Positions 1 to 28,600 of a stretch of DNA of 64,000 bases are shown here, piece by piece (positions within the stretch are counted from its first letter, which is position 1; every line of letters begins with the position of its first letter). The notes under the pieces are model-generated. The model was not told the origin of the DNA. It saw only the letters and a list, made by a program, of their open reading frames with translations, and did no database searches. Source of the stretch: Mobula birostris (lineage: Eukaryota); NCBI RefSeq assembly GCF_030028105.1, contig NC_092383.1, positions 76,673,359 to 76,737,358 of the forward strand. Direction: 5' to 3'. A program made the translations under genes and the position numbers.

Positions 1-802
1 CCAGACAGAATATAAGGTGTTGTTCCTCCAACCTGAGTGTGGCTTCATCTTTACAGTAGAGGAGGCCGTGGATGGACATGTCAGAATGGGAATGGGATGT
101 GGAATTAAAATGTGTGGCCACTGGGAGATCCTGCTTTCTCTGGCGGACAGAGCGTAGATGTTCAGCAAAGCGGTCTCCCAGTCTGCGTCGGGTCTCGCCA
201 ATATATAAAAGGCCACATCGGGAGCACTGGACGCAGTATATCACCCCAGTCGACTCACAGGTGAAGTGTTGCCTCACCTGGAAGGACTGTTTGGGGCCCT
301 GAATGGTGGTAAGGGAGGAAGTGTAAGGGCATGTGTAGCACTTGTTCCGCTTACACGGATAAGTGCCAGGAGGGTCGGGGGGGACGAATGGACAAGGGAG
401 TTGCGTAGGGAGCGACTTTCTCTCACTCTCCTTTTTCTCCCTCTGTCCCTCTGAATATACCCCTTGCCCATCCTCTGGGTCCCCCCCCCTTGCCTTTCTT
501 CCCAGACCTCCTGTCCCATGATCCTCTTGTATCCCTTTTGCCTATCACCTGTCCAGCTCTTGGCTCCATCCCTCCCCCTCCTGTCTTCTCCTATCATTTT
601 GGATCTCCCCCTCCCCCTCCAACTTTCAAATCCCTTACTCACTCTTCCTTCAGTTAGTCCTGACGAAGGGTCTCGGCCTGAAACGTCGACTCCACCTCTT
701 CCTACAGATGCTGCCTGGCCTGCTGCGTTCACCAGCAACTTTGATGTGTGTTGCTGGAATATAAGGTGTTGCTCCTCTAACCTGAGTGTGGCTTCATCTT
801 TA
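1..802. mobile_element. Penelope-like retroelement (PLE) remnant with inversions: 1-415 GIY-YIG region (-), 416-755 3' terminal region (+), 757-802 short GIY-YIG piece (-)
   Basis: 1-415 is nearly the reverse complement of ~22856-23290. 416-755 matches ~23385-23726 directly. The minus-strand translation includes KDEATLRLEEQHLIF and PPLPPFRAPNSPSR, as in the 22-23 kb copy. Confidence 0.9.
656..691 (+). ncRNA. Minimal type-I hammerhead ribozyme motif with intact core
   Basis: AGTC-CTGACGA-A-GGGTCTCGGCCT-GAAA-CGTC-GACT. Stem I AGTC/GACT, CUGANGA box 660-666, stem II 667-679, GAAA 680-683, palindromic ACGU in place of stem III, GUC triplet with predicted cut after C687. Confidence 0.75.
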
Positions 803-1619
803 AATTTAGCTTTGTTTGCCCTATGTACATCAAAACATTGAAGTATAAATAAAATGCGTCTTTTCTGACAACAACTAAGATAGTCAAATATGTGCTGGGG
901 CAGCCTGTAGGTGTCGCTATGCTTCTGGTGCCAACACTGCTTGCCCACTGTTAGGGCATATTCTGGAGTTGGGACATATTTGCAAATATTGATTTCACCA
1001 GCAACCAATCTTCAGATATGAATGTGGATTATAGATTGAATTTAAAATGCAGCCCTGAACAATAGTTTTCCTGGAGTTGTAGACAGGAGTTAATTGCAAA
1101 CCAGACAATGTTGATTAAAATTCATTTTGGGTATCTGGACTGTGGGTGTGAAGGTGTGTAAAAACTATATGTAATTGAAAGGAAGCATTGTAGATACGTT
1201 CCAGCCATAGAATTGTCCTGCTGTTACCATTGATCTTCAGCATATAAGAATGCCATGTCATAAAAATGTTGGGTCAGGATGGCCTCTTCCTCCAAGTGTG
1301 TCTCAACATGATGCCTACTGTTCATTTTTGTTGAATAAAACACTTCTATATCCACTAGCTTCAGTGTCTCTCCAGTGATTTTGTTCATGTTACAATACTA
1401 AAAGCTATTTGTATTCTTATACACAATTAATCTCTCACCCATCAATTCTCTGCTCACTGACACAGCAGTAAAATGTTTGAATTTTGCAATGCTCACCCTT
1501 CTGCTTAAGTCCTTATCTAGCTTCTCCCTAACCTTTCTCTGCCTTGCAACAAATTGAGAACTTTGCATTTCCCAAATTCTCCATCATTTATTCATCCACC
1601 TCTTCTTTGACCCATCATT

Positions 1620-2580
1620 AAGGAGTAATACAGTAAGGAAACAGAGTCTTTGATCCACTATGTTGGTGCCAGTCATCATGTACTTAAAAATAATACCATA
1701 TTCCAGCACTAGGCCCATAGTTGTCATGTGCTCATCTATATAGAACATAAAAATAACACAACCATACTGTACTTCAGTATTGTGACAGTACTGTCTCCAC
1801 CATCAGTTCAGGTAACATATTCCAGGGTACCATCACCCTCTGGGTGGAAAAAAGTATTTTCTCAAGTATTCTCTAAAGCTCATGCAACTTGCCTTAAACC
1901 CATGCTCTCTGTTCAGTATCTACCCTCTCCATTCCGGTATACTTCAATCAGGACACCTTTCAGCTTTCTCCACCTATCCATTCTCTCATAACTGAAATGT
2001 ACTTTCCTCGGCAACATGCTGGTCAATGTTCTCTGCTGCAGCCTTCACAATGCAATCACATTCTGGCTTTAGTGTGGTTACCAGAATTGCACACTTTTTC
2101 AGCTGTGGACTAACCAATTTCATATTTAGTAGCACCGCAGATAATTATCACTGATCTGAACTGAATATTGACTCTTTTTTGTGTTTTATAATTTGTTTTT
2201 CACTCATTCTTTTTTGTTGCCATTTGCATGATTTATTTTTTGTGCGTGGGAGAGGGTTAATGTTTTTCTTTGTACGGGTTCCATGGTTTTGTTTCATGAC
2301 CGTCTGTGGGGAAGAAGAATCTCAGGGTTGTACACTGTATTCTATACATAGTTTGATAAATGTACTTTCAATCCCTCCTTTGAACTATAATCTCCCCGCT
2401 TTTATGCACTGACTAAATGAAGGTAAGTATCATGTACGTTGTCTTCAGAACCTTTTCTGCCTACATTGATGTCTTCAGTTCTTAAACTTCTACATCAAGG
2501 TCCCTCTCTACCATACCACTTCTTAGTGTCCTACCAATGTCTAGGTCCTAGCATAATTAGTCCTTCTAAATATTACATTA
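1620..2580 (-). mobile_element. Old, degraded CR1 LINE 3' fragment interrupted by a Rex-type 3' end (~2130-2370)
   Basis: Shares motifs with other minus-strand CR1 copies here, e.g. tgcaatcacattct...ccagaattgcaca versus 8571-8610. Confidence 0.55.
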
Positions 2581-2803
2581 TTCAGGATTAACTTCAACTG
2601 CCGGTTTTATTCCCATTTTACTAACTCATCGATATTATTAACCGAATAATATCGTTGTCTGTAAGATGGAATGAGGTAAGCACAAGAGGAGCGAAAAGAT
2701 AGAAGGAGATTCTATAGGGTTTGAGTGTGGACTGAAGGTCCAATGGAGTATAAACATCGGTCGATTTCTCTGTAGTAACACTCTATGTTTTTATTTATTG
2801 TAG

Positions 2804-2865
2804 GGTTCAAGAATCGCTTTGTGAAACCAAAAGGAGCAAGAAATCCTTCTCCAGACTGGGTCTGA
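2804..2865 (+). CDS. PTPN22: Last coding exon of PEST-family tyrosine phosphatase PTPN22 (CTH motif)
   Basis: Acceptor ttttatttattgtag ends at 2803. The phase-1 exon reads (G)FKNRFVKPKGARNPSPDWV* with TGA at 2863-2865. This resembles the human PTPN22 C-terminus as I recall it ([21 protein letters not shown]). Its position upstream of RSBN1 on the same strand favours PTPN22 over PTPN12 or PTPN18. Confidence 0.88.
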
Positions 2866-4369
2866 CACTACCCTCAGTGAATTCTTCCCACAGCCAGAAG
2901 TTGAAAGCATTGATGCGCAAGGCTGGGGTTGTCTTCTGAATTTGCTCCTCCGGACCCCCATTTCCCATGGGACGAGAAAATCCGTCATGCAAGTGAAAAG
3001 CAGAATTCCTGTTCTCCCTCATTACAAACAAAGCACAGCTGAAAGCAAATTCTCCGAAATCATTTACTTCATAAACAGGCCACTGAACAGAAAGAATGAA
3101 TCCATAACACTTTGCTAAAAGGTTCTGACTCCGGTCTATTTGATGAAGCACAGATTCATATTTGAAGAACCACAGGGTTACAATCAATTATGAACATAAT
3201 GAACTGCACACTGACACTGGTGTGTCTGAGGTGGAACATTGAGAGTGAGAGATTTGGAGTCTTCTTCCTTTCTATCTGGCTTTGATTATTTTCCCAACAC
3301 AGACATTTTCAGTGGTTGGGGATGAACCTGCTGCAAACATGTTGTAAACTCGATCATATCAGTAAAGAATGGCTGGGATTTGTATTTTCACTGGGATTGG
3401 TCTTTTTATTTCATTTCCCACAAGAAACAATGGGATGGTTTGAGGGGTATGGGCAGAATGCATTCAATGCCATTTGTGAATTGCAGGGATCCAGTTAAGT
3501 ACCATGGAATTGCAACCTATGACTATGGTGTATGGTGCATGGTATAGGCTGAGGATTTCTTGTGGGATGAGGGTTGGCGGGAGTTGGGTACAGAGGAGTG
3601 GGAGTGGACTCAACAGCCTGGACAGAACATACCCAGTGCAGGACTCAGTGGGGGCGGGGGGGGCACAGAGAGGATTTCTTGCAGTATGGAAAAAAGATTA
3701 GGTGTTAACAGCAGTTCAAGAGTTGTGCTGAGTGTCGAGATGCTGATAAATATATCCATTTCTTCGAATGTAAACATATAGTGGCTAAGATTGTCTTTCA
3801 GAAAGGAAGCCATCTCTGATAACGGGAACCTTACAAAGAAATCATTGGATGCAAGATGAACAAATTAATCCACCTGATTTGCGCGATTCCTGTTGGGTTT
3901 GATATGATGATCTATTTATTGCTTGCTGTGGCAATAGAGCAGTGTGCTAGGTAATCACTAGATGGAGCCAAAATGTGGTGCTCAAGAAGAAACAAATAAC
4001 ATAAGACTGAACGCACATAGCTAAGTGATCCCTGCGTCGTTGTCAACAAGCTTTGAGCTCACAGACTATTGATTTTTGTTTTCAATCTCATAATATGATC
4101 TTGCTTCTTTGTACTAAACACCAGAGGAACCACTGTCCAATGAACAATTTGTTTAAAATGAAATGTCTTTGGGGAATTTATAAGCACCCTGGTCCCATCC
4201 CTTTGAACCAGCTGCATATTATAGAAGCACATAAATTTATTATAGGAACAGACTGAGAATTCCACTGTAGTCATAGGAAATAGGTAGAAGCTAGTGCCAT
4301 GATTACTAATGCTAATTCTTTGTTTTTGTGCTATTCTCTAGGAATTAATTAAACAGTTGAACAATTAAA

Positions 4370-4456
4370 AATAAATCATTGCAATTAATTCCAGATTTTT
4401 AAAGTTAATGGAGGTTTAATTACAGCTTTAATCACACTATTGCCAACAATAATAAA
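4370..4456 (+). terminator. Candidate PTPN22 polyadenylation signals (AATAAA at 4370-4375 and 4451-4456)
   Basis: Two AATAAA hexamers close a ~1.5 kb largely repeat-free stretch after the stop codon. Usage cannot be established from sequence. Confidence 0.35.
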
Positions 4457-4656
4457 ACACTCATATTTTCAAATAGTCTCACGGAAAATATTCTGCCTTC
4501 ATAACCTCTAATAATGTAATTTAGAAAATGTCTTCATGCTCAAATCCTTCCAGGAACGTAGCCTCCCAAACTCTGTAAACCACATCCCCACCAGACCTGC
4601 AACCTTCTGATCCTGACAGTTCCCTGTTCTGGGCTTTTATTTATTTATGGAAAATG

Positions 4657-4744
4657 AGAGAGAGGGAGAGAGGAGGAGGAGGGGAGAGGGAGAGAGGAGG
4701 AGGGGAGAGGGAGAGAGGAGGAGGGGGAGAGAGGGAGAGAGAAA
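4657..4744 (+). repeat. Pure polypurine minisatellite, about 3-4 copies of a ~21-bp GGAGAGAGGAGGAGGGGAGAG-like unit
   Basis: Seen directly. It generates the spurious ERERGGGG ORF at 4654-4842. Confidence 0.9.
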
Positions 4745-4769
4745 CAAACAAACAGGCCTCCTGGCCTAA

Positions 4770-5010
4770 GGAGTCACATTGCCCAGCAACCCACCTATTT
4801 AACACTAGCCTAATCACAGGACAATTTACAATGACCAATTAACCCACTAACCAGCATGTCTTTGGGATATGGGGGAAAATTGGAGCACCCAGAGGGAACA
4901 CATGCAGTTTGTGGAGAGAATGTACAAACTCCTTCCAGACAGCATTGGAATTGAACTCCAAACTCCGGAACACCCTGAACTGTAAGAGTATCATGCTACC
5001 ATGGTGCCCA
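4770..5010 (-). mobile_element. tRNA-derived V-SINE-like element; related copies at ~7990-8110(-), 31880-32080(-), 39545-39640(+), 41300-41490(-), 55130-55420(+), 63160-63435(-)
   Basis: Shared core tctttggga-tgtggga-gaaa-cggagcacccagaggaaacc...tacaaactcc...ggaattgaac. The + copy at ~55133 begins with A-box-like and B-box-like sequence (gtagtggtta...gggtttaattccc). Confidence 0.7.
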
Positions 5011-6122
5011 AATTTCCTGTCCCCCACCAAGGGTGGCCACTCAGCTCAGTATCAAAACTTTATCAAGCGAATATATGGAAAATTGTTCTGCTTTGGACAA
5101 GACTCTCAAAGTTGACTGAAATCTGAGCAATAGCTTGCCACAGGGATGAGGAAAAACACGATTTGACATGTAAATTGGGCTAAGCCATGTTGCCAGAAGC
5201 TTTACTGTAATTGTATGAGTGAACTTTAAAGTATCAGTGACAGAGCAGAAAGATTAAAAACTTAACTGTGTAGTATTAAAGGTTAGCTTTAAGACACAGG
5301 AGCAGAGAGAGGTAAAGGATTGGATGGTGAGTGTGTGGTAGGGAAATTAAGTTATGGCATTGAGAGGGAGACCAAGTGTCTCTATGAAAGCAAAGTGATA
5401 AAACAACAAAATTCACAACATAAAGGACGTCCCTGATAATACACTCAATTCTGATTCTGACAGTGAACAAGCCAAATTCAATAAGGAAAGAAAAATTAGA
5501 TTCCCTTTGAGACAGAGGAGTCTGTGAGCCCGAGCCACGGATATTACCTGCTGCTTTGATCGTCTCAGTTCATGTTCTCCAACAGCCTCATACAAGGCAA
5601 TCACGAGCTGCCTGTGTCTCCCGCAACTACTCAACTCAGTACTCCTATCTCACCAGGATATAGTGGAGGATGGAAACAATATAGCTACCCAGCAAACTGA
5701 TGTATTGCTTTACTTCAGCTTCAATGATCAACGCCACACAAGTCTTTATAACCTACTGCACAGTATCACTACAGGTATTCACCATTTAGCATCTCCGACC
5801 ATTCCCAATGTATTCATTTTTAGAAACCAACATCGAAGGCAGCTTGTGGAAAGTTTGCTTTTATAATTATTCTTTAAAGCCTGGGTATTAAAAAAAATGT
5901 TAATTTCCATTTTAATGGTACATTATTGGCAATTACTCATTAGCTGTTGAATTAATACTTAATTACTGGAACTGTTGTATTATGCTGTTGTAATATTTAA
6001 TCACCAGAACTATTGTAAGCAACTGATAGCAGTCAATCATAGAAATAGTTTTAAAAAGTTTTTTATATTATTGCCTTTGAAAGTTTTGCTATACTGAGGT
6101 ACCAGAAAGCATGCCAATAAGG

Positions 6123-6192
6123 CAGGGGTTCCCAACCGGGCCCCTCGGTTAATGATGAGGCTCTGTGGCATAAAAGAGGTTGGGAACCCCAG
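6123..6192. mobile_element. 70-bp hAT (Charlie-like) MITE
   Basis: TIRs CAGGGGTTCCCAACC / GGTTGGGAACCCCAG. 8-bp TSD caataagg (6115-6122) / caataaag (6193-6200). Confidence 0.8.
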
Positions 6193-6309
6193 CAATAAAG
6201 TAAAGAGATGATTTTTTTTTTTAACCACCTAGTTGGCTCTGAGAAGACAGTCACATACAAGAAAGTATATGTTGAATGATTGACATTTGGAAAAAGATAA
6301 TTGATGGTA

Positions 6310-7830
6310 AGATATCCTAGGCCGATCCCTCTAGGAATATTTCTCGTATGAGAAAGGAATCTTCACCGGGCATTGGTGAGGTACCAGCTGGCTAGAGGAC
6401 AGCAAATGTGGTTTCATTTTTCAAGAAAGATAGCAGGGAAATAATTAGTAACTTTAGACCTGTTAGCCTAGCACCACTGATAAAAAAAAATGTTAACGGA
6501 AAAAAAAATCTGAGGGATATAATGAATGATCAGTTGGGAAGTCAGGGACTAATCAGAGGCAGCCAATATGACTTTGTTATCGGCAGATCCTCTCTGACTC
6601 ATTTTACTGAATTATCTGAAGAGGTAACACCATGCGTTGACGAGGGCAGGGCAAAAGAGGTGTTTTACAAAGACAAGGTTCTGCATGGGAGACCAGTTCA
6701 GCAAGTTAGGGGCTCATGGGATCCAAGTTGGCGAACTGGGCCCAAAACTGGCTAGGCAATAGGAGGCAAAGGGTGATGGTAGAGAATTGTTTCTGCAGTC
6801 GGATGGCTGTGATTATTGGGACCTCAAAAGGATATGTACTGGGACTCTAGCTCCTTGTAACATGTTTGAATGACTTGCATGTGGATGTGGGAGGCAAAAC
6901 ACGTAAGAAAAGGAATAACACAAAGATTGCAGAGTTATTGATGGTGTGGAAGGTGGTTATAGCCTTGATGGGTGGGTGAAATGGACTAGAAAATGACAGA
7001 AGCAGTTTAAATGTGAGCTGATGCATTTTTGATGAGACAAGGACATACACCACAAATGGTAGGGCTTTAGCAAATATTGAGGGACAGAAGGATCCTGAAA
7101 AACAAGTTCATGGATTCTTGAAGGTTGCAACACAGGCAGATAATATAGTTAGGAAGGGATATAAGATGCCCTTCATTAACCAGGAAATTACAAAGAGAAG
7201 TAAGGAGGTTATGCTCCAACTTTCTAAAACCTTGGTCAAGCCCCAGCTGGAATACTCAGTACAGTTCTAGTCACCAAGGTGCTGGGATGTACTTGCGCTG
7301 GAGAGGATGCAGGACAGATCACTTGGAAGCTGCGTGGGATGGAATAGTTCAGTTATGAGCAGAGACTGGGGAATGGATCTGTTCTCCTTGGACCAGAGGA
7401 ATAGTCATTAGTGAGGAATATAAAATCATGAGGGGTAGGGATAGGATAGGATTCAGGTAACCTTCACATCAGAGGCAATAAAACTCGAGGACACAGGTTT
7501 AGGACAGGGGTTCCCACCTGGGGTCCATGGATCCCTCAGTTAATGTTAGGGATCCATGGCATATAGAAGCTTGGTTTAGGGTAGGGGAGAAGAGACTTAA
7601 AGGGGATATGGGAGGACCTTCTTCATCCAGAGAGTGAAATGCAATGCCTGAGAGTGTGCTTGAAGCTGACTTATTGATGGCATTTAAGAAGAGTCTAGGT
7701 GAGCACTTGAATTGCTTAGGCATTGAGGGTCAGAGAAGTGCTGGGTGATGAAATTAATATAGGAAGGTGCCCACTAGTCAACATGAAAAAATTGGGCTGA
7801 TTGGCCTATGTGCATGCTGTACAGTACCAT
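6310..7830 (+). mobile_element. Degenerate CR1 LINE ORF2 (reverse transcriptase) and 3' end
   Basis: ORF 6408-6755 contains FKKDSR..SNFRPVSL..SQYDFV.GRSSLT (CR1 RT N-terminal motifs). Downstream LVKPQLEY-like region. Many stops and frameshifts. Confidence 0.85.
7505..7573. mobile_element. hAT MITE inserted in CR1, right TIR eroded
   Basis: Left TIR CAGGGGTTCCCA. TSD gtttagga (7497-7504) / gtttaggg (7574-7581). Confidence 0.65.
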
Positions 7831-8399
7831 GAGAATGTCATTTAACCCACTGACGCTATGTCTGATCTCTAACAATCCCAGGAATCACAGTCACACCTTC
7901 ATTTCCCTGTGCTCTAGTCTTTCATAGTGCCCATTAACACCCGGATTCTCCCACCATTCACTTTCAGTCAGAATCATTTACCAATCAACCAACTGCCAGC
8001 ACATTTTGGGATGTGGCAAAAAAAAAAACTGGCTCACCCAGCAAAACCTTTGTCATGGGGAAGAATGAAAACACTCCACATAGGTGGCACCAATGGTCCG
8101 ATTCGAACCAAATTACCCATATGAACAAGCATTGTTAGTAGTCCTGTTTCTCTTGTGACAGATACTGACTTATGGAGTATTTTAAGTACTTTCAAAGAGT
8201 CAAAGTGTATTTATTATCAGAAGTATGTACGCAGTATATAATCCTGAGATTTGTCTTCCCCACAGACAGCCACGAAACAAACAAAACCATTGAACCAGTT
8301 CAAAGAAAACACCGAGTCGCATGGCTTTCTGTTTTTATTTTGGAATTCACAGTCCCTACATCCAGCAGACTACTATGTAAAGAAGGCATTACATTTGCT

Positions 8400-9520
8400 G
8401 AGAGTCATAGTACTTAATATGTACTAGAAAAAACCCTTCTACCCATCATATCCATACTCTTAGATCTACGTCCTCTTGTTTCTGATACCCCTAGACATGG
8501 AAAAGATATTAACTATCTATCCTATCCATGCCTCTTGTAATGTAACACATCTACTCTGCACTGTTTCCAGTGCAATCACATCCTTTTTAGTGTGGGAACA
8601 GAACTGCACACAATAGTGTAGCCTAAATGGTGTTTTGTAAAGTGGCAACATTATGTCCCAACTGTTGGTCAGAATGAGAATCGGGTTTAATATCACTGAC
8701 ATACTGTATGACTACGGTAAACACCCCATATAATTCTCCATCACCTTGTCGTCCTTTGTTACTTTCAGGAAACTATGGACTTGGACTCCGAGATTCTCTG
8801 TTCATCAACATTCTCTAGTTCCCGACCACTTATTGTATATATCCTACCCCTATTTGACTCTTCAAACTGTATTGCCTCATGCTTTTCAGGATTAAAGTCT
8901 ATCTGCCAACACTCTGCCTAGCTTTTGAACTGATCTATATTCTGCCTTATGGACCCTCTTCACTATCCAACACATCTCCAATTCTCATGCCATCCACAAA
9001 TACGCTAAACATACCTCCTACATCCACATCCAGTTTGTTAATATATACCACAAAAAAACAAAGGTCCCAGCACAGATTCATGTGGGACACCACTGACCCA
9101 CAATTAGAAAAGCTTCCTTCAACCATGACCTTCTGCCTCCTCTCACTTAGCCAATTTTGGATCCAATTAGCCACCTTGCCTTGGACGTGTATACCTTAAT
9201 CTTCTGGATCAGCCTAATGTGCTGGGTGGGTCATGGCAAATGACTTTAGTAAGTCCATATAGGCATCTTCTACTACCCTGCAAGCATCAAACCTCTTAAT
9301 TAGCTCCTCAAAAAATTCACTCGTGTAATGAGCAAGGCAATCCTAGCAATACCCTAATCCATCCCTGACTTTCAAAATGTTCATAAATTCTATCCCTTAG
9401 AACAGGGCTTTCCAACCTGGGGTCCACAGCATTAAAAAGGTTGGGAAACCCTGCCTCAGAATTTTCTTTAATAATTTCCCAATGACTGAGGTAAAACACA
9501 TGGTCTAACAGTTAACCTGC
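8400..9520 (-). mobile_element. Degenerate CR1 LINE ORF2 fragment
   Basis: Minus-strand ORFs include ANWIQNWLSERRQKVMVEG and LPLYKTPFRLHYCVQFCS (CR1 RT motifs). Confidence 0.85.
9403..9453. mobile_element. 51-bp hAT MITE
   Basis: TIRs CAGGGCTTTCCAACC / GGTTGGGAAACCCTG. TSD ccttagaa (9395-9402) / cctcagaa (9454-9461). Confidence 0.8.
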
Positions 9521-11099: not shown

Positions 11100-11830
11100 A
11101 GTAAATACCCACAGGGAGGACCGTGACTGACTGTACCTCATCGACATTGGGTTGCTGGTTCCACGCTGCGGGGAAGGCTGGCTGATGCTATGACGCCAAT
11201 ACCACTGACTTGCCCCGCTTCCGGGAGCCGTGCTGCGGTGCACGCGCCACTCTTTCCGTCGGGCCCTTCCGGCAGCTCGGGACGTCACTGCCGGTTTGCG
11301 ATGGCGCAGCTCGGCCTGATCCGCCTGAAGGCGCCGAACAAGGAGTCGCGGGATCGGGAGTCCGCCGGGCTCAGACCCGACCCGGGTCCCGGCTCCGGCC
11401 CACACCCTGCCGCCAAGCGCCGTAAGACTCACCATCACGGCCTTATGCGTGGACCCGCGACCTCGGCCCCCGCGCTCCGTTACCCGCCCCCCGCTCATGT
11501 CAGTGGTGGTCTACCTGCCGCCGTGTACTCGGTGTGTCCGCCGCCACCGACGGGATCTGGCCCCGGCCTCGGCTCTATCCCTGCCGCCGGGCCTACCCCC
11601 TGCCCGCGCCCAGCCCCCGCCCTCGCGGCCAGCGCCACCTCCCTCCCCAAGACGAGGAACCCGAAAGATAAGCACCTACACCGGGACAAGGAGAAGAAGC
11701 ACCGGCCGCGTAAAGAGAATAACGACGGCGGGCCTCCGCACAAAGGTACGAGGGTCTTCATGTATTAGATGGAACTGCTGAAGCCACGCGGAAAATTTAA
11801 AGCCCTCGGTGGGGTCTGTGCAAACATTCG
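11100..11830 (+). promoter_or_regulatory. CpG island and TATA-less promoter of RSBN1
   Basis: The only strongly CpG-rich segment of the window. ATTGG 11146-11150, TGACGCCAAT 11191-11200, ETS-type CTTCCGG 11218-11224 and 11266-11272, CRE-like GACGTCA 11281-11287. Confidence 0.8.
11301..11745 (+). CDS. RSBN1: RSBN1 coding exon 1 (Pro-rich, basic, low-complexity N-terminus)
   Basis: ATG at 11301 in strong context (gcgATGG) begins MAQLGLIR, similar to recalled human MAAQVGAVR. Donor AAG|GTACGA after 11745 is phase 1 and matches exon 2. An in-frame upstream ATG exists at 11190. Confidence 0.8.
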
Positions 11831-21900: not shown

Positions 21901-22051
21901 CAAAACTGCTCACAATACTTAGCAACGCACACAAAATGCTGGAGGAACTCAGCAGGCCAGGCAGCACCTATGGGAAAAAAAGTACAGTTGACATTTCAAG
22001 CAGAATCCCTTTGGCAGGACTGGAGGGGAAAAAAAGCTAAGGAGTAGAATT

Positions 22052-23726
22052 CCAGACCTGATCAGTTCCCCTGTACCACCACTCTGCTTCATCTAGCGGA
22101 ATTAGTCCTTACTCTTAATAATTTCTCCTTTGGCTCCTCCCACCTCCTTCAAACTAAAGGTGTAGCTATGGGCACCCGCATGGGTCCGAGCTATGCCTGC
22201 CTTTTTGTTGGCTTTGTGGAACAATCTATGTTCTGAATCTATTCTGATATCTGTCCCCCACTTTTCCTTCGCTACATCGACGACTGCATTGGCGCTGCTT
22301 CCTGCACGCATGCTGAGCTCGTTGACTTTATTAACTTTGCCTCCAACTTTCACCCTGCCCTCAAGTTTACCTGGTCCATTTCCGACACCCCCCTCCCCTT
22401 TCTAGATCGTTCTGTCTCTGGAGACAGCTTATCTACTGATGTCTACTATAAGCCTACTGACTCTCACAGCTATCTGGACTATTCCTCTTCTCACCCTGTC
22501 TCTTGCAAAAATGCCATCCCCTTCTCGCAATTCCTCTGTCTCTGCCACATCTGCTCTCAGGATGAAGCTTTTCATTCCAGGACGAGGGAGATGTCCTCCT
22601 TTTTTAAAGAAAGGGGCTTCCCTTCCTCCACCATCAACTCTGCTCTCAAACGCATCTCCCCCATTTCACGCACATCTGCTCTCACTCCATCCTCCCGCCA
22701 CCCCACTTGGAATAGGGTTCCCCTGGTCCTCACCCACCACCGCACCAGCCTCCGGGTCCAACATATTATTCTCCGTAACTTCCGCCACCTCCAACGGGAT
22801 CCCACCACTAAGCACATCTATCCCTCCCCCCCCCCCACCCCGCTTTCCGCAGGGATCGTTCCCTACGCGACTCCCTTGTCCATTCGTCCCCCCCATTCCC
22901 TCCCCACTGATCTCCCTCCTGGCACTTATCCTTGTAAGCAGATCAAGTGCAACACATGCCCTTGCACTTCCTCCCTTACCACCATTCAGGGCCCCAGACA
23001 GTCCTTTCAGGTGAGGCAACACTTCACCTGTGAGTCGGCTGGGGTGATATACTGTGTCTGGTGCTCCCAGTGTAGCCTTCTATATATTGGCGAGACCCGA
23101 CGCAGACTGGGAGATCGTTTTGCTGAACACCTACACTCTGTCTGCCAGAGAAAGCAGGATCTCCCAGTGGCCACACATTTTAATTCCACATCCCATTCCC
23201 ATTCTGACATGTCTATTCACGGCCTCCTCTACTGTAAAGATGAAACCACACTCAGGTTGGAGGAACAGCACCTTATATTCCGTCTGGGTGGCCTCCAACC
23301 TGATGGCATGAACATTGACTTCTCTAACTTCCGCTAATGCCCCACCTCCCCCTTGTACCCCATCCATTATTTATATACACACATTCTTTCTCTCACTCTC
23401 CTTTTTCTCCCTCTGTCCCTCTGACTATGCCCCTTGCCCATCCTCTGGGTTCCCCTCCCTGCTGTTTTCTTCTCCCTGGGCCTCCTGTCCCATGATCCTC
23501 TCATATCTCTTTTGCCAATCAACTGTCTAGCTCTTGGCTCCATCCCTCCCCCTCCTGTCTTCTCCTATCATTTTGGATCTCCCCCTCCCCCACCCACTTC
23601 AAACCTCTTACTAGCTCTTCCTTCAGTTAGTCCTGACGAAGGGCCCCGGCCTGAAGCGTCGACTGCACCTCTTCCTAGAGATGCTGCCTGACCTGCTGCG
23701 TTTACCTGCAACTTTGATGTGTGTTG
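22052..23726 (+). mobile_element. Young 5'-truncated Penelope-like element (RT C-terminal half, GIY-YIG endonuclease, 3' end); pseudogenised
   Basis: RT motifs QTKGVAMGTRMGPSYA and RYIDD (YIDD 22273-22284) with an in-frame stop between them. ORF 22591-23337 has GVIYCVWCSQCSLLYIGETRRRLGDRFAEH. Perfect 14-bp TSD TAAGGAGTAGAATT at 22038-22051 and 23727-23740. Confidence 0.93.
23629..23664 (+). ncRNA. Hammerhead motif with core mutation (GAAG instead of GAAA); probably inactive
   Basis: AGTC-CTGACGA-A-GGGCCCCGGCCT-GAAG-CGTC-GACT. Confidence 0.6.
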
Positions 23727-25016
23727 TAAGGAGTAGAATTAAAAGGTAGAGGGAGGGGAGAGAGCAGGAGGGGGTGGTTTCACCTATCACCTGGTGGTTC
23801 TCTCTCCCCTCTTCCCCACCTTTTGAATCTACTGCTCAGCTTTTCTTTTCTCCAGTCCTGCCAAAGGATTTCAACCCAAAACATCGACTGTACTTTTTTC
23901 AATAGATGCTGCCTGGCCTGCTGCATTCCTCAGCATTTTGTGTGTGTTGCTTGGGTTTTCAGCATCTGCAGATTTTCTCCTTGTGATTTGATCTCTTTGC
24001 GGTCTGACCAATGCCTTATATAGCCTCAGTATTATATCTTTGCTTTTATATTGTAGTCGTTTTGAAATGAATGCTTTTGTTATACCAACTCAGCCTGAAG
24101 TTAACCTTTAAGGAATCCTGTATGAGGACTTCCAAGTCCCTTTGCACTTCTGATTTCTGAATTTGCTCACCATTTAGAAAATAGTCAATGCCTTTATTCC
24201 TTCACTAAAGTACATGACCATAAATTTCCCTACACTGTATTTCATCTGTCAACTTCTTTGCCCATATTCCTAATCTCTCTCAATCCTTTTGCAGATTTCC
24301 TGCTTCCTCGCTGCTACCTGCCCCTTCATCTATCTTTGTATCATCCACAAACTTGGCCATAAAGCCATTAATTCCGTCATCCAGATCATTGACATATAAC
24401 ATGAAATGAAACAATCTTGACGAGCACCTCTAGCCACCGGTAACCAAGCAGAAATGATCCTCTTTATTCCCTTCTTGCCAGTCAACCAGTCTTTTATCCT
24501 GTCACATTGTACAGCAAAGTTTAAAATAAAGCAAATCTAAGTAATAAGCATTAGCTAACTTTAAAAAAACTCAGCTTGTGCTAGGAAAATTGGTCTGAGG
24601 AATATATATAAAACTAAAGTTTTGCAATATTATTAAATAGTCAAATGGAGAAGGGGAGGCAGTCAACTATTTTAATGACAATTCAAAATTTATAGCAATA
24701 AAGAGCTTGGATTTATATAATTAGTTTGATCTGAAAACATTCCGAAGTGCTTAACAGCAATACATTTTTCACAGAAATTTCTGGTAGTGGAGGAGCCCAT
24801 TTGGACCTTTGTGTCCATGTACAGTTGTTGTGATATCAGGAAGTATTTGCCTCAATTCATTTAGTAAGGCCACCTATATGAAAGAGAACGATATTAATGT
24901 TCTGTGTGAAAGGATGGCAGGATAAATTTTCCTATCATGCTTTAATGGGTTAGAATATTTTCAATTATTGAACTATATGTATTTGATGCAGTATTAACAT
25001 TTATTCCCCCTCACAG

Positions 25017-25687
25017 GTGGCTCTGATGAAAACGGGAAAAGTCGGAGACCTGATGAATACTTGGGCAAAAAAACAAAGAAAAAGAAGAAAAAGAAACATA
25101 GAGAAGGTGAACGACCAAGGCAGTTAAAAATGTACAATAAAGAGGTGCAGACAACCTGCGCAGGGCTCACTCGTGTTGCCCTTGATACTTTGGGTCAAGG
25201 TTCTTCTGATGAATCGAGTATAATCAACCAAGCTTCGATTAAGCATGAGGAAGAGCTCAATAGGTTGGACCTGAAAGTGAGCCATTGTCCCATCCCCTCG
25301 TGTGCACAGTTGCCATACTTATCACATAGAGACTACTGTGTCCGGAAAGGATTCTTGCGGACAGGTTCCTCTAAATTTGCCCACTTAATTCATGTGGAGC
25401 ATCAGCCAAATGGTGGTGCGCCAGTACTCCATGCCTACATGGATGAACTCTCTTTCTTGTCTCCTATGGAGATGGAGAGGTTTGCTGAAGAGTTCCTTGC
25501 ATTGACTTTCAGTGAAAATGAGAAGAGCGCAGCGCACTACGTAATGGCCATCATACATGGAGCAGCAGCCTACCTGCCAGACTTTCTGGATTACTTTGCT
25601 TTCAACTTCCCCAACACTCCAGTAAAAATGGAAATTCTTGGGAAGAAGGACATAGAAACTACAACCATCTCAAACTTTCGGTCTCAG
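25017..25687 (+). CDS. RSBN1: RSBN1 coding exon 2 (poly-Lys NLS-like tract and start of the conserved DPY-21-like region)
   Basis: Acceptor ccccctcacag ends at 25016 and donor CAG|GTAAGG follows 25687 (phase 0). The peptide DENGKS..KKKKKKKHRE..LKMYNKEVQT.CAGLTR..HAYMDELSFLSPMEMERF.EEFLALTFSENEK..YLPDFLDYFAFNFPNTPVKMEILGKKDIETTTISNF matches RSBN1 as recalled. KMYNKEVQT favours RSBN1 over RSBN1L. Confidence 0.96.
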
Positions 25688-28600
25688 GTAAGGTTTAGTG
25701 CTTTATGGTCTTTCTGCTTTTAATCAAATTTTGAAAAGTAAAATGCAATATAAGAAGACTGTAGAACTAATGCCCAGCAAAAGGTCCTGTTAAAACAATT
25801 GTAAAGAAAATCCTTAACGAATTAAAAATAATCTGTTGTGTCTGCTATAAATTTTACACCACCCTTTCAAAGCACCTCCATATTTAATTGACTTGTCTCT
25901 AAATGGTATATGTAGGGATACAAATTGTACTGTTTTGGATGTTGTTTCCTGTACAGATGGAAACTTCCACCATTTAAGTAGCATTGACTGTCAGACAAAA
26001 TGGTAATGGTGATGCCTTAGGTTCGAAGACAATTATTACCCCATAACCATCAGGCTTCTGAACCAGAGTGCATAACTTAATTTGCCTCAACTCTGAGCTA
26101 ATTCCACAACTTATAGAGACTTTGAAAGTGAGTCCTTAACTCATGTTCTTAATATTTATTATCTTTTTCTTTTTGTATTTACATAACTTGTCTTTTATAC
26201 ATTGTTTGTCTATTGTGCTTCATTGTATGTGCTCTGAATGCCCTCAAGAAATTGAATCTTAGGGTGGTATATGGTGAGATAAATGTACTTTGATAAATTT
26301 AATTTGAGCTTTGACACGTCTGCCACCTCAAGCTAAACTCTTGCCAGGCATAAACTGGCAGACTGACAAATTTCCACTCAGAGTGAAGGATGTTACCAAC
26401 TACGTTATAACGGATTACTCTCACCTATTATTTAAACTACTTCCCAAAAGTGCCCATCTAAAAATAAAAAAATATATTGGAATTATGGAAGCCCAACTGG
26501 AAAACCAAGATTTGCTCCAGTTCTTGATGCAAGTTTCTTTTAGCTTTGCTAAAATCATATGACATGACTATATTTTGTTACTCACAAAGGCATCTTGAGA
26601 GAAATAGCATCTCAACCTGTCTAAACTTTATTAGTGCATTCTTGCTGAATTTGATGCTTTTTGTTTAAGCCAATCTGCAGATTTTGTTATATCATTCTGT
26701 GGTTTCAAAGTGTGTGCAGGGGAATGTATACATTCATTGGATGTTTTATCCTCTTACGTCAAGTTAGAACACAATGTATGAAGCAAGTAGTGCAAATAGG
26801 CTCTGCAGCCCTTCATGTTGCACCATCGTTCAATAAAATAACAGCTGAGTCTTTTAACTCAGTGCCATCTTCCTGCAGTAACTGCTTATCCTTAGATTCC
26901 CTAAGATAAGGTCACTAAGGTCTGTTAATGTTATAATCCCAAATACTGGTCTTATCCTTGCAGCTTTTGAGTAGTAAAGTGCTAACTGGATACTAAACAA
27001 ATGCACAGAATTCATCCCAAGCATTTCATACTCCACTCCAGCTACTTTCTGCCTTACTCTTCGAGCCTTTATCTGCAATCCCATCTATTCCTCCTCTGTA
27101 TGCTTTTAACATATTTATTTGTTGTGCTCAGTTACTCCTTGTGGTAGCAAATTCCACATTTTTACCACTCTCTAGGCAAACATGTTTTTAAATTCTTTAT
27201 CTCCACTTGATTTCTTAATGATCATCATGCATGGGCAGTCTTTTCTCCTGCTTTACTGTGAACAGGAGCATTCACCGTGTCCATGTTATCAAGATTTTAT
27301 GACATCAGTTACAGGACTCCTCAGTCCTATCCTATATCCTTTTCATAATCTTGCAACAGAACTGTGCAGAATACTTCAAGCATGGTCCAACCATGATTCC
27401 ATGAGGGCTTCTGCAGCACATTTTTAAATTTCTGATAAGATGGTGGTGCATTTGCTGACTTTAAGAACTTTGGGTACTGCAGGTCTACATCATTAGCAAG
27501 CTGCTTGTTGGCGGAAGAGCTTGACTTGGTGTGGACCATGTTGCTGCCTGCTACAGGAAGGCATTGAAGACATTTGATTTAGTGCACGAAAGCAGTGTGC
27601 AGTATAACTGGGTGGCTGTCTTGGATATTTCTCTCGCAATCAAAAGACACTGTTGGATATTAATAAAGTAAGATGCTGCAGACTTGTTTCCCTTGTTTGT
27701 TAGTGCTGTAGACAGCAGGGGAGCTGTGCGGCCTCATTTGTAGCGAGGACTAGGCCTCAAGCCTTGGGCTTGCCTGCTGCTGCAGTCTAAGAGAGGAGAT
27801 GCCAGAAGCAGTGTAGCGTGGCTTCTATGCTCGGTTGGGAGTTGGGCTCCAGAATTTGTTCAATGGAAGTGCAAGCTGGATTGCATGCATGTGTTCATCT
27901 GCAGAATGCTGGAACTACACCACCAATTTGCAACATATGTCACTCAGGAACTTGAGCTTTTTTTTTTTGCATGACTGTAGGTTTGCTATCTTAAATGTGC
28001 TGCGTCTGTTTTGCATCTTGGCCCTGGGAGAACGCTGTTTCGTTCGGCTGTATTTGTGTATGGTTGAATGATAATTAAACTTGAACTGAACTGGAATTTT
28101 ATTACTCCAGAGGGAAACCAGAAGCTATAGCTTGCCTTCATTTAAATCTTATTGGAGTGTGTTGCAACTTATTGATAACTTGTCTCTTTGTACTTCTGGC
28201 TTTCTCTGCTTCTTCATCACACTTAGCAATCTTTGGAAGCTGGAAATACGGCAATGCTAAATAGGCTGACAATCACAATTGCGAGCATTGGGCAACAACA
28301 TACCAAGAGGAAGTATAATATTTAAAATTCTTTCTGGAAATTGGTGATTGTGTGGGACACTATGCCTTCAGGAAAATTTAGCAGACTGTATTAGCAACTA
28401 GCAAGATCATTTATTGATTTTTTTAAAAAGTTGAATTTAATTTTCAATACAGTGTATTAATGGAGTTCAGTAGTTACAGAAAACTTCAAACACCTGAAAA
28501 ACTGAAGGGAGGAGATGGATAGTTGGAAACTGTTGGTTTATCTTGTGTACTAGACATGTTGACTTTCTGCCCTTTACAAGAGATTGCCTAAAACCCTGCC

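Follow-up and report, generated by a model that had tools for sequence, protein, structure and literature searches.

That Penelope-like elements (PLEs) carry minimal hammerhead ribozymes (min-HHRs) is already in print, and the motif described here, at positions 656-691 of a Mobula birostris locus, is one of tens of thousands of copies. In the parts of Cervera and de la Pena (2014, PMC4209133) covered here, metazoan min-HHRs do not cleave as monomers and cleave at a low level as dimers. Their G10.1-C11.1 pair, which lies outside the descriptor of that paper, is highly conserved, and in the D. virilis element an intron ends at helix I. According to the covered sections of Frangieh et al. (2024, PMC11167929), the ribozyme of an anole PLE cleaved only when protein was present, insertion in vitro did not need it, and no reads ended at its site. 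Inverted 5'-truncated copies and a one-sided tail of 30-40 bp are described as typical of PLEs (PMC8557442, part covered). Non-LTR retrozymes are reported, in the covered part of a preprint, from one chondrichthyan genome (bioRxiv 10.64898/2026.07.22.740005). Literature search for Penelope hammerhead ribozymes in cartilaginous fish retrieved none, and supplements of PMC4209133 and of the preprint may list shark or ray motifs.

The stretch of DNA analysed (the window, 64,000 nucleotides numbered 1-64000) corresponds to 76673359-76737358 of its contig in a genome of 4.0 Gb. Positions of 0 and below refer to 100 kb of upstream sequence. The family was sampled in 560 kb of random DNA (56 loci at round coordinates) and in a second set of 10 loci around long open frames, L099, L100 and L102 among them. 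Four sequencing runs were compared as contigs. Their RNA status is a guess only and, since they exist as contigs, ends, strand, level and editing are not readable from them.

The hammerhead motif and its element family

The motif and its immediate surroundings are as follows.

656..691, plus strand: minimal type I hammerhead motif (sequence, descriptor, folding)
636..662, plus strand: motif front, rich in pyrimidines (sequence; 656-659 holds 6 of the 37 5' breakpoints sampled)

Read in blocks, 656-691 is AGTC CTGACGA A GGGT CTCG GCCT GAAA CG TC GACT. The conserved core (C3-A9, G12-A15.1, U16.1 and H17) is present as CUGACGA at 660-666, GAAA at 680-683 and UC. Numbering runs from C3 at 660 to A9 at 666, through an extra A667, G10.1 at 668, U11.1 at 679, G12 at 680 and A15.1 at 683, to C15.2, G16.2, U16.1 at 686 and C17 at 687. 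Stem I comprises four base pairs (656-659/688-691) with type I closure, one fewer than the five of the family. Substitution of G692, retained in 29 of 31 young copies, by C is private to this copy and removes one stem I pair, so the copy is weaker than its family. Stem II also has four pairs (668-671/676-679), two of them G-U, and an alternative register with three; the extra nucleotide between 9 and 10.1 (A667) belongs to the more stable register (-6.0 vs -4.6 kcal/mol). The ACGU at 683-686 is palindromic, the 15.2-16.2 trait, and there is no stable helix III. A complete core, stems I and II and ACGU within 36 nt, as announced in the preliminary description, are thus borne out by sequence and descriptor, as is the cut predicted after C687 (687/688), where core numbering places C17.

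Taken alone, the short core pattern hardly exceeds chance in the window: 12 matches stand against 7.1 +/- 2.5 in shuffles. The full descriptor gave 14 matches in the 560 kb sampled and 0 in each of 5 shuffles. Rfam covariance models yielded no match in the window at gathering score, and at E up to 10 on 600-800 they yielded four unrelated weak matches, none of them to a hammerhead. Judged by descriptor, 656-691 is a genuine PLE minimal hammerhead motif; the kind is known, and one pair is variant. It is also the sole intact copy among the window remnants, as had been claimed for about ten of them (one of 12 is core-intact).

Elsewhere in the window, two plus-strand features belong to the same family.

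23629..23664, plus strand: closest other copy in the window, outside PTPN22, broken by A15.1 to G and two further changes in stem-loop II
22237..23337, plus strand: remnant frame spanning reverse transcriptase (RT) to GIY-YIG, with YIDD and CX4CxxC linker

Both lie in a compound PLE locus (21918-23990), whose parts are an inverted older end, the RT-endonuclease remnant, the broken copy at 23629 and, in tandem, another older end.

The family is very abundant. Across the 4.0-Gb genome, exact matches to the 36-mer number 20,082; a 31-mer in which two pyrimidines are left free has 34,387 and a 34-mer allowing up to 3 mismatches 106,990, and the backwards pattern gave 0 in each search. In the 560-kb sample, a profile search detected 148 family remnants. 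Scaling from the 14 descriptor matches, some 100,000 descriptor-intact copies are expected genome-wide. The family is also abundant in contigs of the runs, whose RNA-like nature is a guess. With 20,082 identical copies, and with intactness expected from youth, the earlier portrayal of a notable, partner-ready ribozyme is not supported.

Three of the 10 long-frame loci (L099, L100 and L102) carry two same-sense motifs 3.5-3.7 kb apart. In L100 these enclose a 1016-codon RT/GIY-YIG open reading frame whose first Met lies 138 nt past the cut site. In element RNA the motif heads the 5' leader, and its designation as part of a Penelope 3' end is correct for the DNA copy only. The 1016-aa protein matches GIY-YIG with 23.2 bits (cut-off 22.6) and RVT_1 with E 6e-4, below cut-off, and YIDD is present. 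The linker finger CX4CxxC is seen as CKQNKCYTC and, in window frame 2-541, as CKRNKCYTC; it points to a PLE of Neptune/Nematis type. The motif sits in the pseudo-LTR (pLTR), and partial tandem pLTRs, an inverted 5' copy and a one-sided tail are all present. On these sequence features, the 36 nt are a pLTR motif of a very abundant PLE. Penelope-type identity with a dimer-type stem III had been proposed before, and both pLTR location and palindromic ACGU agree with it.

Ends of 46 copies were compared. Nine extend to the start of the reference. Among the remaining 37, the 5' breakpoint lies at 647-714 in 23, including 6 at 656-659, and cleavage fossils, i.e. breakpoints at 687-689, number 0 of 37 in this small sample with an 85% identity filter. 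The 3' ends are split between 752-763 (19 of 46) and 787-789 (19 of 46). By analogy with the anole element, this pattern is consistent with uncut RNA being copied from two start points.

Several further observations concern family copies. Seven sampled loci (L034, L046, L048, L053, L069, L073 and L080) contain short head-to-head insertions with inversion joints inside or at the front of the hammerhead, and an opposite-strand joint 657/699 is deep in three runs. A second subfamily (-82890, -12262 and L043:3037-3074) has GGGTTCCGGCCC as stem-loop II and keeps G10.1-C11.1. The front of the motif at 636-662 reads TACTCAC...CAG, with CAG at 651-653, followed by TTAGTCC with A656; we take it to resemble a branch point and 3' splice site plus a putative initiator. 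Many family copies read TACTAAC or TACTCAC, pyrimidines and CAG or TAG directly before the motif, and a sense family copy could act as a cryptic 3' splice acceptor.

Variant pair, decay and selection

At 656-691 the 10.1-11.1 pair is a G-U wobble, not G10.1-C11.1. A G-U pair at this place would be expected to lower hammerhead activity. Among 52 distinct copies, 28 have G-U and 22 G-C; U11.1 occurs in 27 of 32 motifs of long-element loci (L087-L108), and the C11.1 form accounts for 5,930 exact 31-mers genome-wide. Simple CpG decay as origin of U679 was ruled out: in the random sample the CpG at 11.1 reads TG in 31 of 55 copies and CA in 5 of 55, and other CpGs decay evenly. As read from these counts, it is the most amplified, young subfamily that departs from the conserved pair.

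Post-insertion selection on copies is not visible; they decay like neutral DNA. Core CpGs are changed as often as non-core ones (684-685 in 22 of 55 and 687-688 in 21 of 55 copies, loop 674-675 in 24 of 55). At 1.3% change per arm, the chance of finding 36 unchanged bases is about 0.6, so intactness of this copy needs no selection. Of the two properties expected of a family consensus, core conservation is retained and stem covariation is not seen within this genome: two-sided changes occur at 1 of 11 stem pairs vs 2.6 in shuffles (56 copies, this genome only), at low power because the copies are mutated descendants of few near-identical masters.

Comparison of young (31) with older (61) copies, after identity filters had dropped 56 of 148 rows, revealed that the majority letter differs at 8 of the 64 downstream positions compared. 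Inside the motif it differs only at N7 and 11.1, with the fold kept. Since the masters kept catalytic positions while downstream sequence changed, the motif probably matters to the element. Master changes inside vs outside the motif were also compared post hoc by a Fisher test (p 0.048), which was discarded, as it omitted the N7 change.

A nested insertion in the last PTPN22 intron

The host gene was delimited with protein P0001, the Mobula birostris PTPN22-like protein. It is tiled by 17 plus-strand exons from -94000 to 2862 (codons 125-790). Identity with one exon here is 100%, and an isolated match of 7 residues at -38027 was left aside. PTPN12 was considered as host because one exon scores nearly equally (67.1 bits with human PTPN22 vs 66.5 with PTPN12), and was ruled out: the 11 best full-length matches are PTPN22-like proteins of fish, and the tiling by P0001 is exact. 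The relevant features are these.

-5375..2802 (window 1..2802), plus strand: last PTPN22 intron, GT...AG, 8.2 kb (P0001 tiling, donor and acceptor)
2803..3377, plus strand: last PTPN22 exon with codons 771-790, stop and 3' UTR (tiling, contigs)
-969..-479, minus strand: remainder of older copy B, with damaged hammerhead at -845..-880 (G16.2 to A)
-478..415 (window 1..415), minus strand: young body A; its window part holds the end of the GIY-YIG frame (Pfam GIY-YIG E 1.7e-4)
416..755, plus strand: inverted 5'-truncated arm C of the young PLE insertion, carrying the motif, without tail (arm alignment)
756..802, minus strand: split-off 5' piece of older copy B (alignment)
-490..-479 and 756..767, no strand: 12-bp target-site duplication flanking A and C (12/12 identical, next bases differ)

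Long contigs of all four runs start matching at 2803, and those of three runs have further sequence absent from 1-4600. Tiling, GT/AG intron ends and contig starts together place the motif sense in the last PTPN22 intron, which confirms the location first assigned to it. Plus-strand coding frames without Pfam match lie at 11127-11768 and 24998-25723; we take them to be putative exons of RSBN1, the expected neighbour of PTPN22.

Along the plus strand the order is B, A, C and the rest of B. Upstream of the window, body A runs on through its 3' UTR and an intact hammerhead (-345..-380) into a tail of 34 nt. Arm C aligns with the minus-strand arm at -444..-102 with 331 identities, 9 mismatches and 3 gaps, a divergence of 2.6% over 340 aligned bases; between A and B it is 6.2% (32 of 513). 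Thus a young element, its 5' arm inverted and its tail on one side only, inserted into an older copy of its kind; both habits are on record for PLEs. The 46-bp repeat 8-53/757-802 was rejected as target-site duplication, being element sequence. Identity as a retrozyme was likewise rejected: there is a single sense motif, and the two on the minus strand, one of them broken, stem from nested insertion.

Two structures result. The last PTPN22 intron contains a 340-bp, 97% identical inverted repeat (-444..-102 with 416..755), which on modelling is likely a source of long dsRNA and a substrate of A-to-I editing. On the antisense strand, two hammerheads lie head to tail 500 nt apart (-381..-344 and -881..-844), one with broken palindrome.

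PTPN22 as a whole (-94000..3377, 97 kb) contains 27 remnants, 14 sense and 13 antisense. Core-intact copies are found four times in sense (-82890, -18915, -12262 and 660), the three others in upstream introns, and once in antisense (-349). With 14 of 27 remnants and four of five core-intact copies in sense, there is no sign of purging. A check for a second sense copy in the last intron, suggested in the preliminary description, yielded none that is intact; the sense remnant at -1335 is mismatched at 16 of 36 positions. The nearest identical core lies 19.6 kb and four exons upstream, in a 5'-truncated solo copy (-18918..-18820) that starts at the motif's front edge and is likewise sense, in a PTPN22 intron further upstream. 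No antisense twin is apparent close to this copy, and it is a better candidate for activity than 656-691.

Predicted behaviour of the motif in host RNA

Folding of -500..800 predicts 331 of 340 arm C bases paired to arm A, with pair probabilities of 0.96-1.00 over 656-691. When copy B is included, 36 of 36 ribozyme bases are still paired. The 36-mer duplex reaches -76.3 kcal/mol vs -6.0 for the active-like monomer. The isolated 36-mer favours a non-catalytic hairpin (-10.0, z -0.37); the self-dimer of minimum free energy (-28.3) is not the active form, for which a nested model gives -9.5, and the ACGU duplex of stem III contributes about -1.7 to -3.1 kcal/mol. These are equilibrium predictions, and helicases, editing or fast splicing in cells could open the duplex. 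Among near-exact copies, at least 8 of 31 have an antisense twin within 2 kb (a lower bound, since 18 of 31 come from 3-kb loci), so that such pairing is a minority state.

We propose that the last PTPN22 intron received the motif with the inverted 5' arm of a young insertion. During transcription of the host gene, the antisense of A would be made about 1 kb ahead of the motif; the arms would then fold into a hairpin of 340 bp, closed by a loop of 520 nt, which would leave together with the intron on splicing. Partial-tandem RNA of the element itself would hold two motifs 3.5-3.7 kb apart, which may pair through ACGU and be cut after C17; this cutting would be slow and probably aided by the element's protein, as for other PLEs. 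A lone genomic copy would lack such a role and decay neutrally. Because complete pairing with an antisense arm transcribed earlier is predicted, we regard the 656-691 copy as an inert, self-masked passenger in PTPN22, with a probability of roughly 0.85. A partner copy, the condition for cleavage named in the preliminary description, would not be enough, since the predicted 340-bp duplex would lock the motif. Against inertness, RNA started inside arm C, e.g. at A656, would lack the antisense arm, and trans partners and element protein may be present, given family abundance in RNA-like runs.

The first of these objections can be developed into an account in which a pLTR promoter in arm C starts a separate RNA at about A656. 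As this RNA is without antisense arm, the motif could fold, be cut in trans or with element protein, and the RNA may reach the last exon. PLE pLTRs contain promoters (PMC6765202), the 5' breakpoints at 656-659 contrasted with none at 687-689 suit such a start, and run X1 has contigs of depth 5-17 over 1050-1355, 1547-2136 and 2146-2832. Yet these intronic contigs fit pre-mRNA or DNA equally, just 240 nt of arm C lie upstream of the motif, the fold of 656-900 has no stem I in the motif and the start site is putative; we consider this account improbable. Equally improbable is the idea that element protein switches on the youngest, massively amplified G10.1-U11.1 subfamily, which, through tens of thousands of identical sense copies lying in introns of host genes, would then cut host pre-mRNAs in trans when the element is expressed. 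Inverted-arm insertions would, on that idea, survive in genes because the antisense arm is a built-in off switch.

We are slightly more sceptical still that the motif dimerises in PTPN22 pre-mRNA, in cis with upstream introns or in trans, cuts the last intron and affects 3'-end processing. It is core-intact and sense, three further core-intact sense copies (-82890, -18915 and -12262) share its transcription unit, and tens of thousands of identical copies are possible trans partners. Nevertheless, arm A is predicted to sequester it fully. The last intron offers the diverged -1335 remnant instead of an intact partner, the nearest identical core is far upstream, stem III is feeble by the values given above, stem I and the 10.1-11.1 pair are weakened, and spliced contigs enter the last exon normally. 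Least credible is a cis dimer in antisense RNA through A and B: A is intact with the family G692, B lies 500 nt downstream and tandem layout is thought to help dimer formation, but G16.2 to A breaks the palindrome in B (duplex +0.2 vs -3.1 kcal/mol), the pair is an accident of nested insertion and the antisense transcript is hypothetical.

If the self-masked passenger is the correct reading, the finding matters little in itself, and its value is that of a clean test case. The free intact copy at -18915 and the identical self-paired copy at 660 permit direct comparison of whether solo PLE hammerheads cut host pre-mRNA. If solo copies do cut, the descriptor-intact copies of this genome would be a genome-wide burden on splicing.

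Comparison with described systems

The comparisons below concern the covered parts of each source. The intronic CPEB3 ribozyme (PMC10919898) shares with our motif a self-cleaving type of structure lying sense in a host intron; it is a single conserved HDV-like ribozyme, in contrast to a young repeat copy without sign of locus-specific selection. Animal non-LTR retrozymes (bioRxiv 10.64898/2026.07.22.740005) share a type I hammerhead of PLE origin and many intronic copies. They consist of tandem intact units, whereas here a nested, inverted fragment of a protein-coding element is found.

EN+ PLEs of Neptune/Nematis type (Craig et al. 2021, PMC8557442) have the same single frame with RT and C-terminal GIY-YIG, the CX4CxxC linker and two cysteines between GIY and YIG, as well as partial tandem, inverted 5'-truncated copy and one-sided tail. 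No difference from them was found in the features compared.

Like the ray element, the Poseidon element PAc of green anole (Frangieh et al. 2024, PMC11167929) has its hammerhead where pLTR and ORF meet, inserts into its own kind and shows two 3' end points some 35 nt apart, with no pile of ends at the cut site. Its frame begins inside the ribozyme, not 138 nt past the cut site as here, and Penelope/Poseidon proteins are without the CX2-5CxxC linker that the protein here has.

Metazoan PLE min-HHRs (Cervera and de la Pena 2014, PMC4209133) are closest to the motif itself. Shared are type I layout with full core and short helix I, the extra base 9/10.1, palindromic 15.2-16.2 without loop 3, location in the pLTR and mostly solo copies genome-wide. 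The main text covered names no cartilaginous fish. The ray motif differs in having G10.1-U11.1 where G-C is highly conserved, in a copy number far above the 4,000-9,000 given for coelacanth and Xenopus, and in belonging to a young subfamily of very low sequence diversity.
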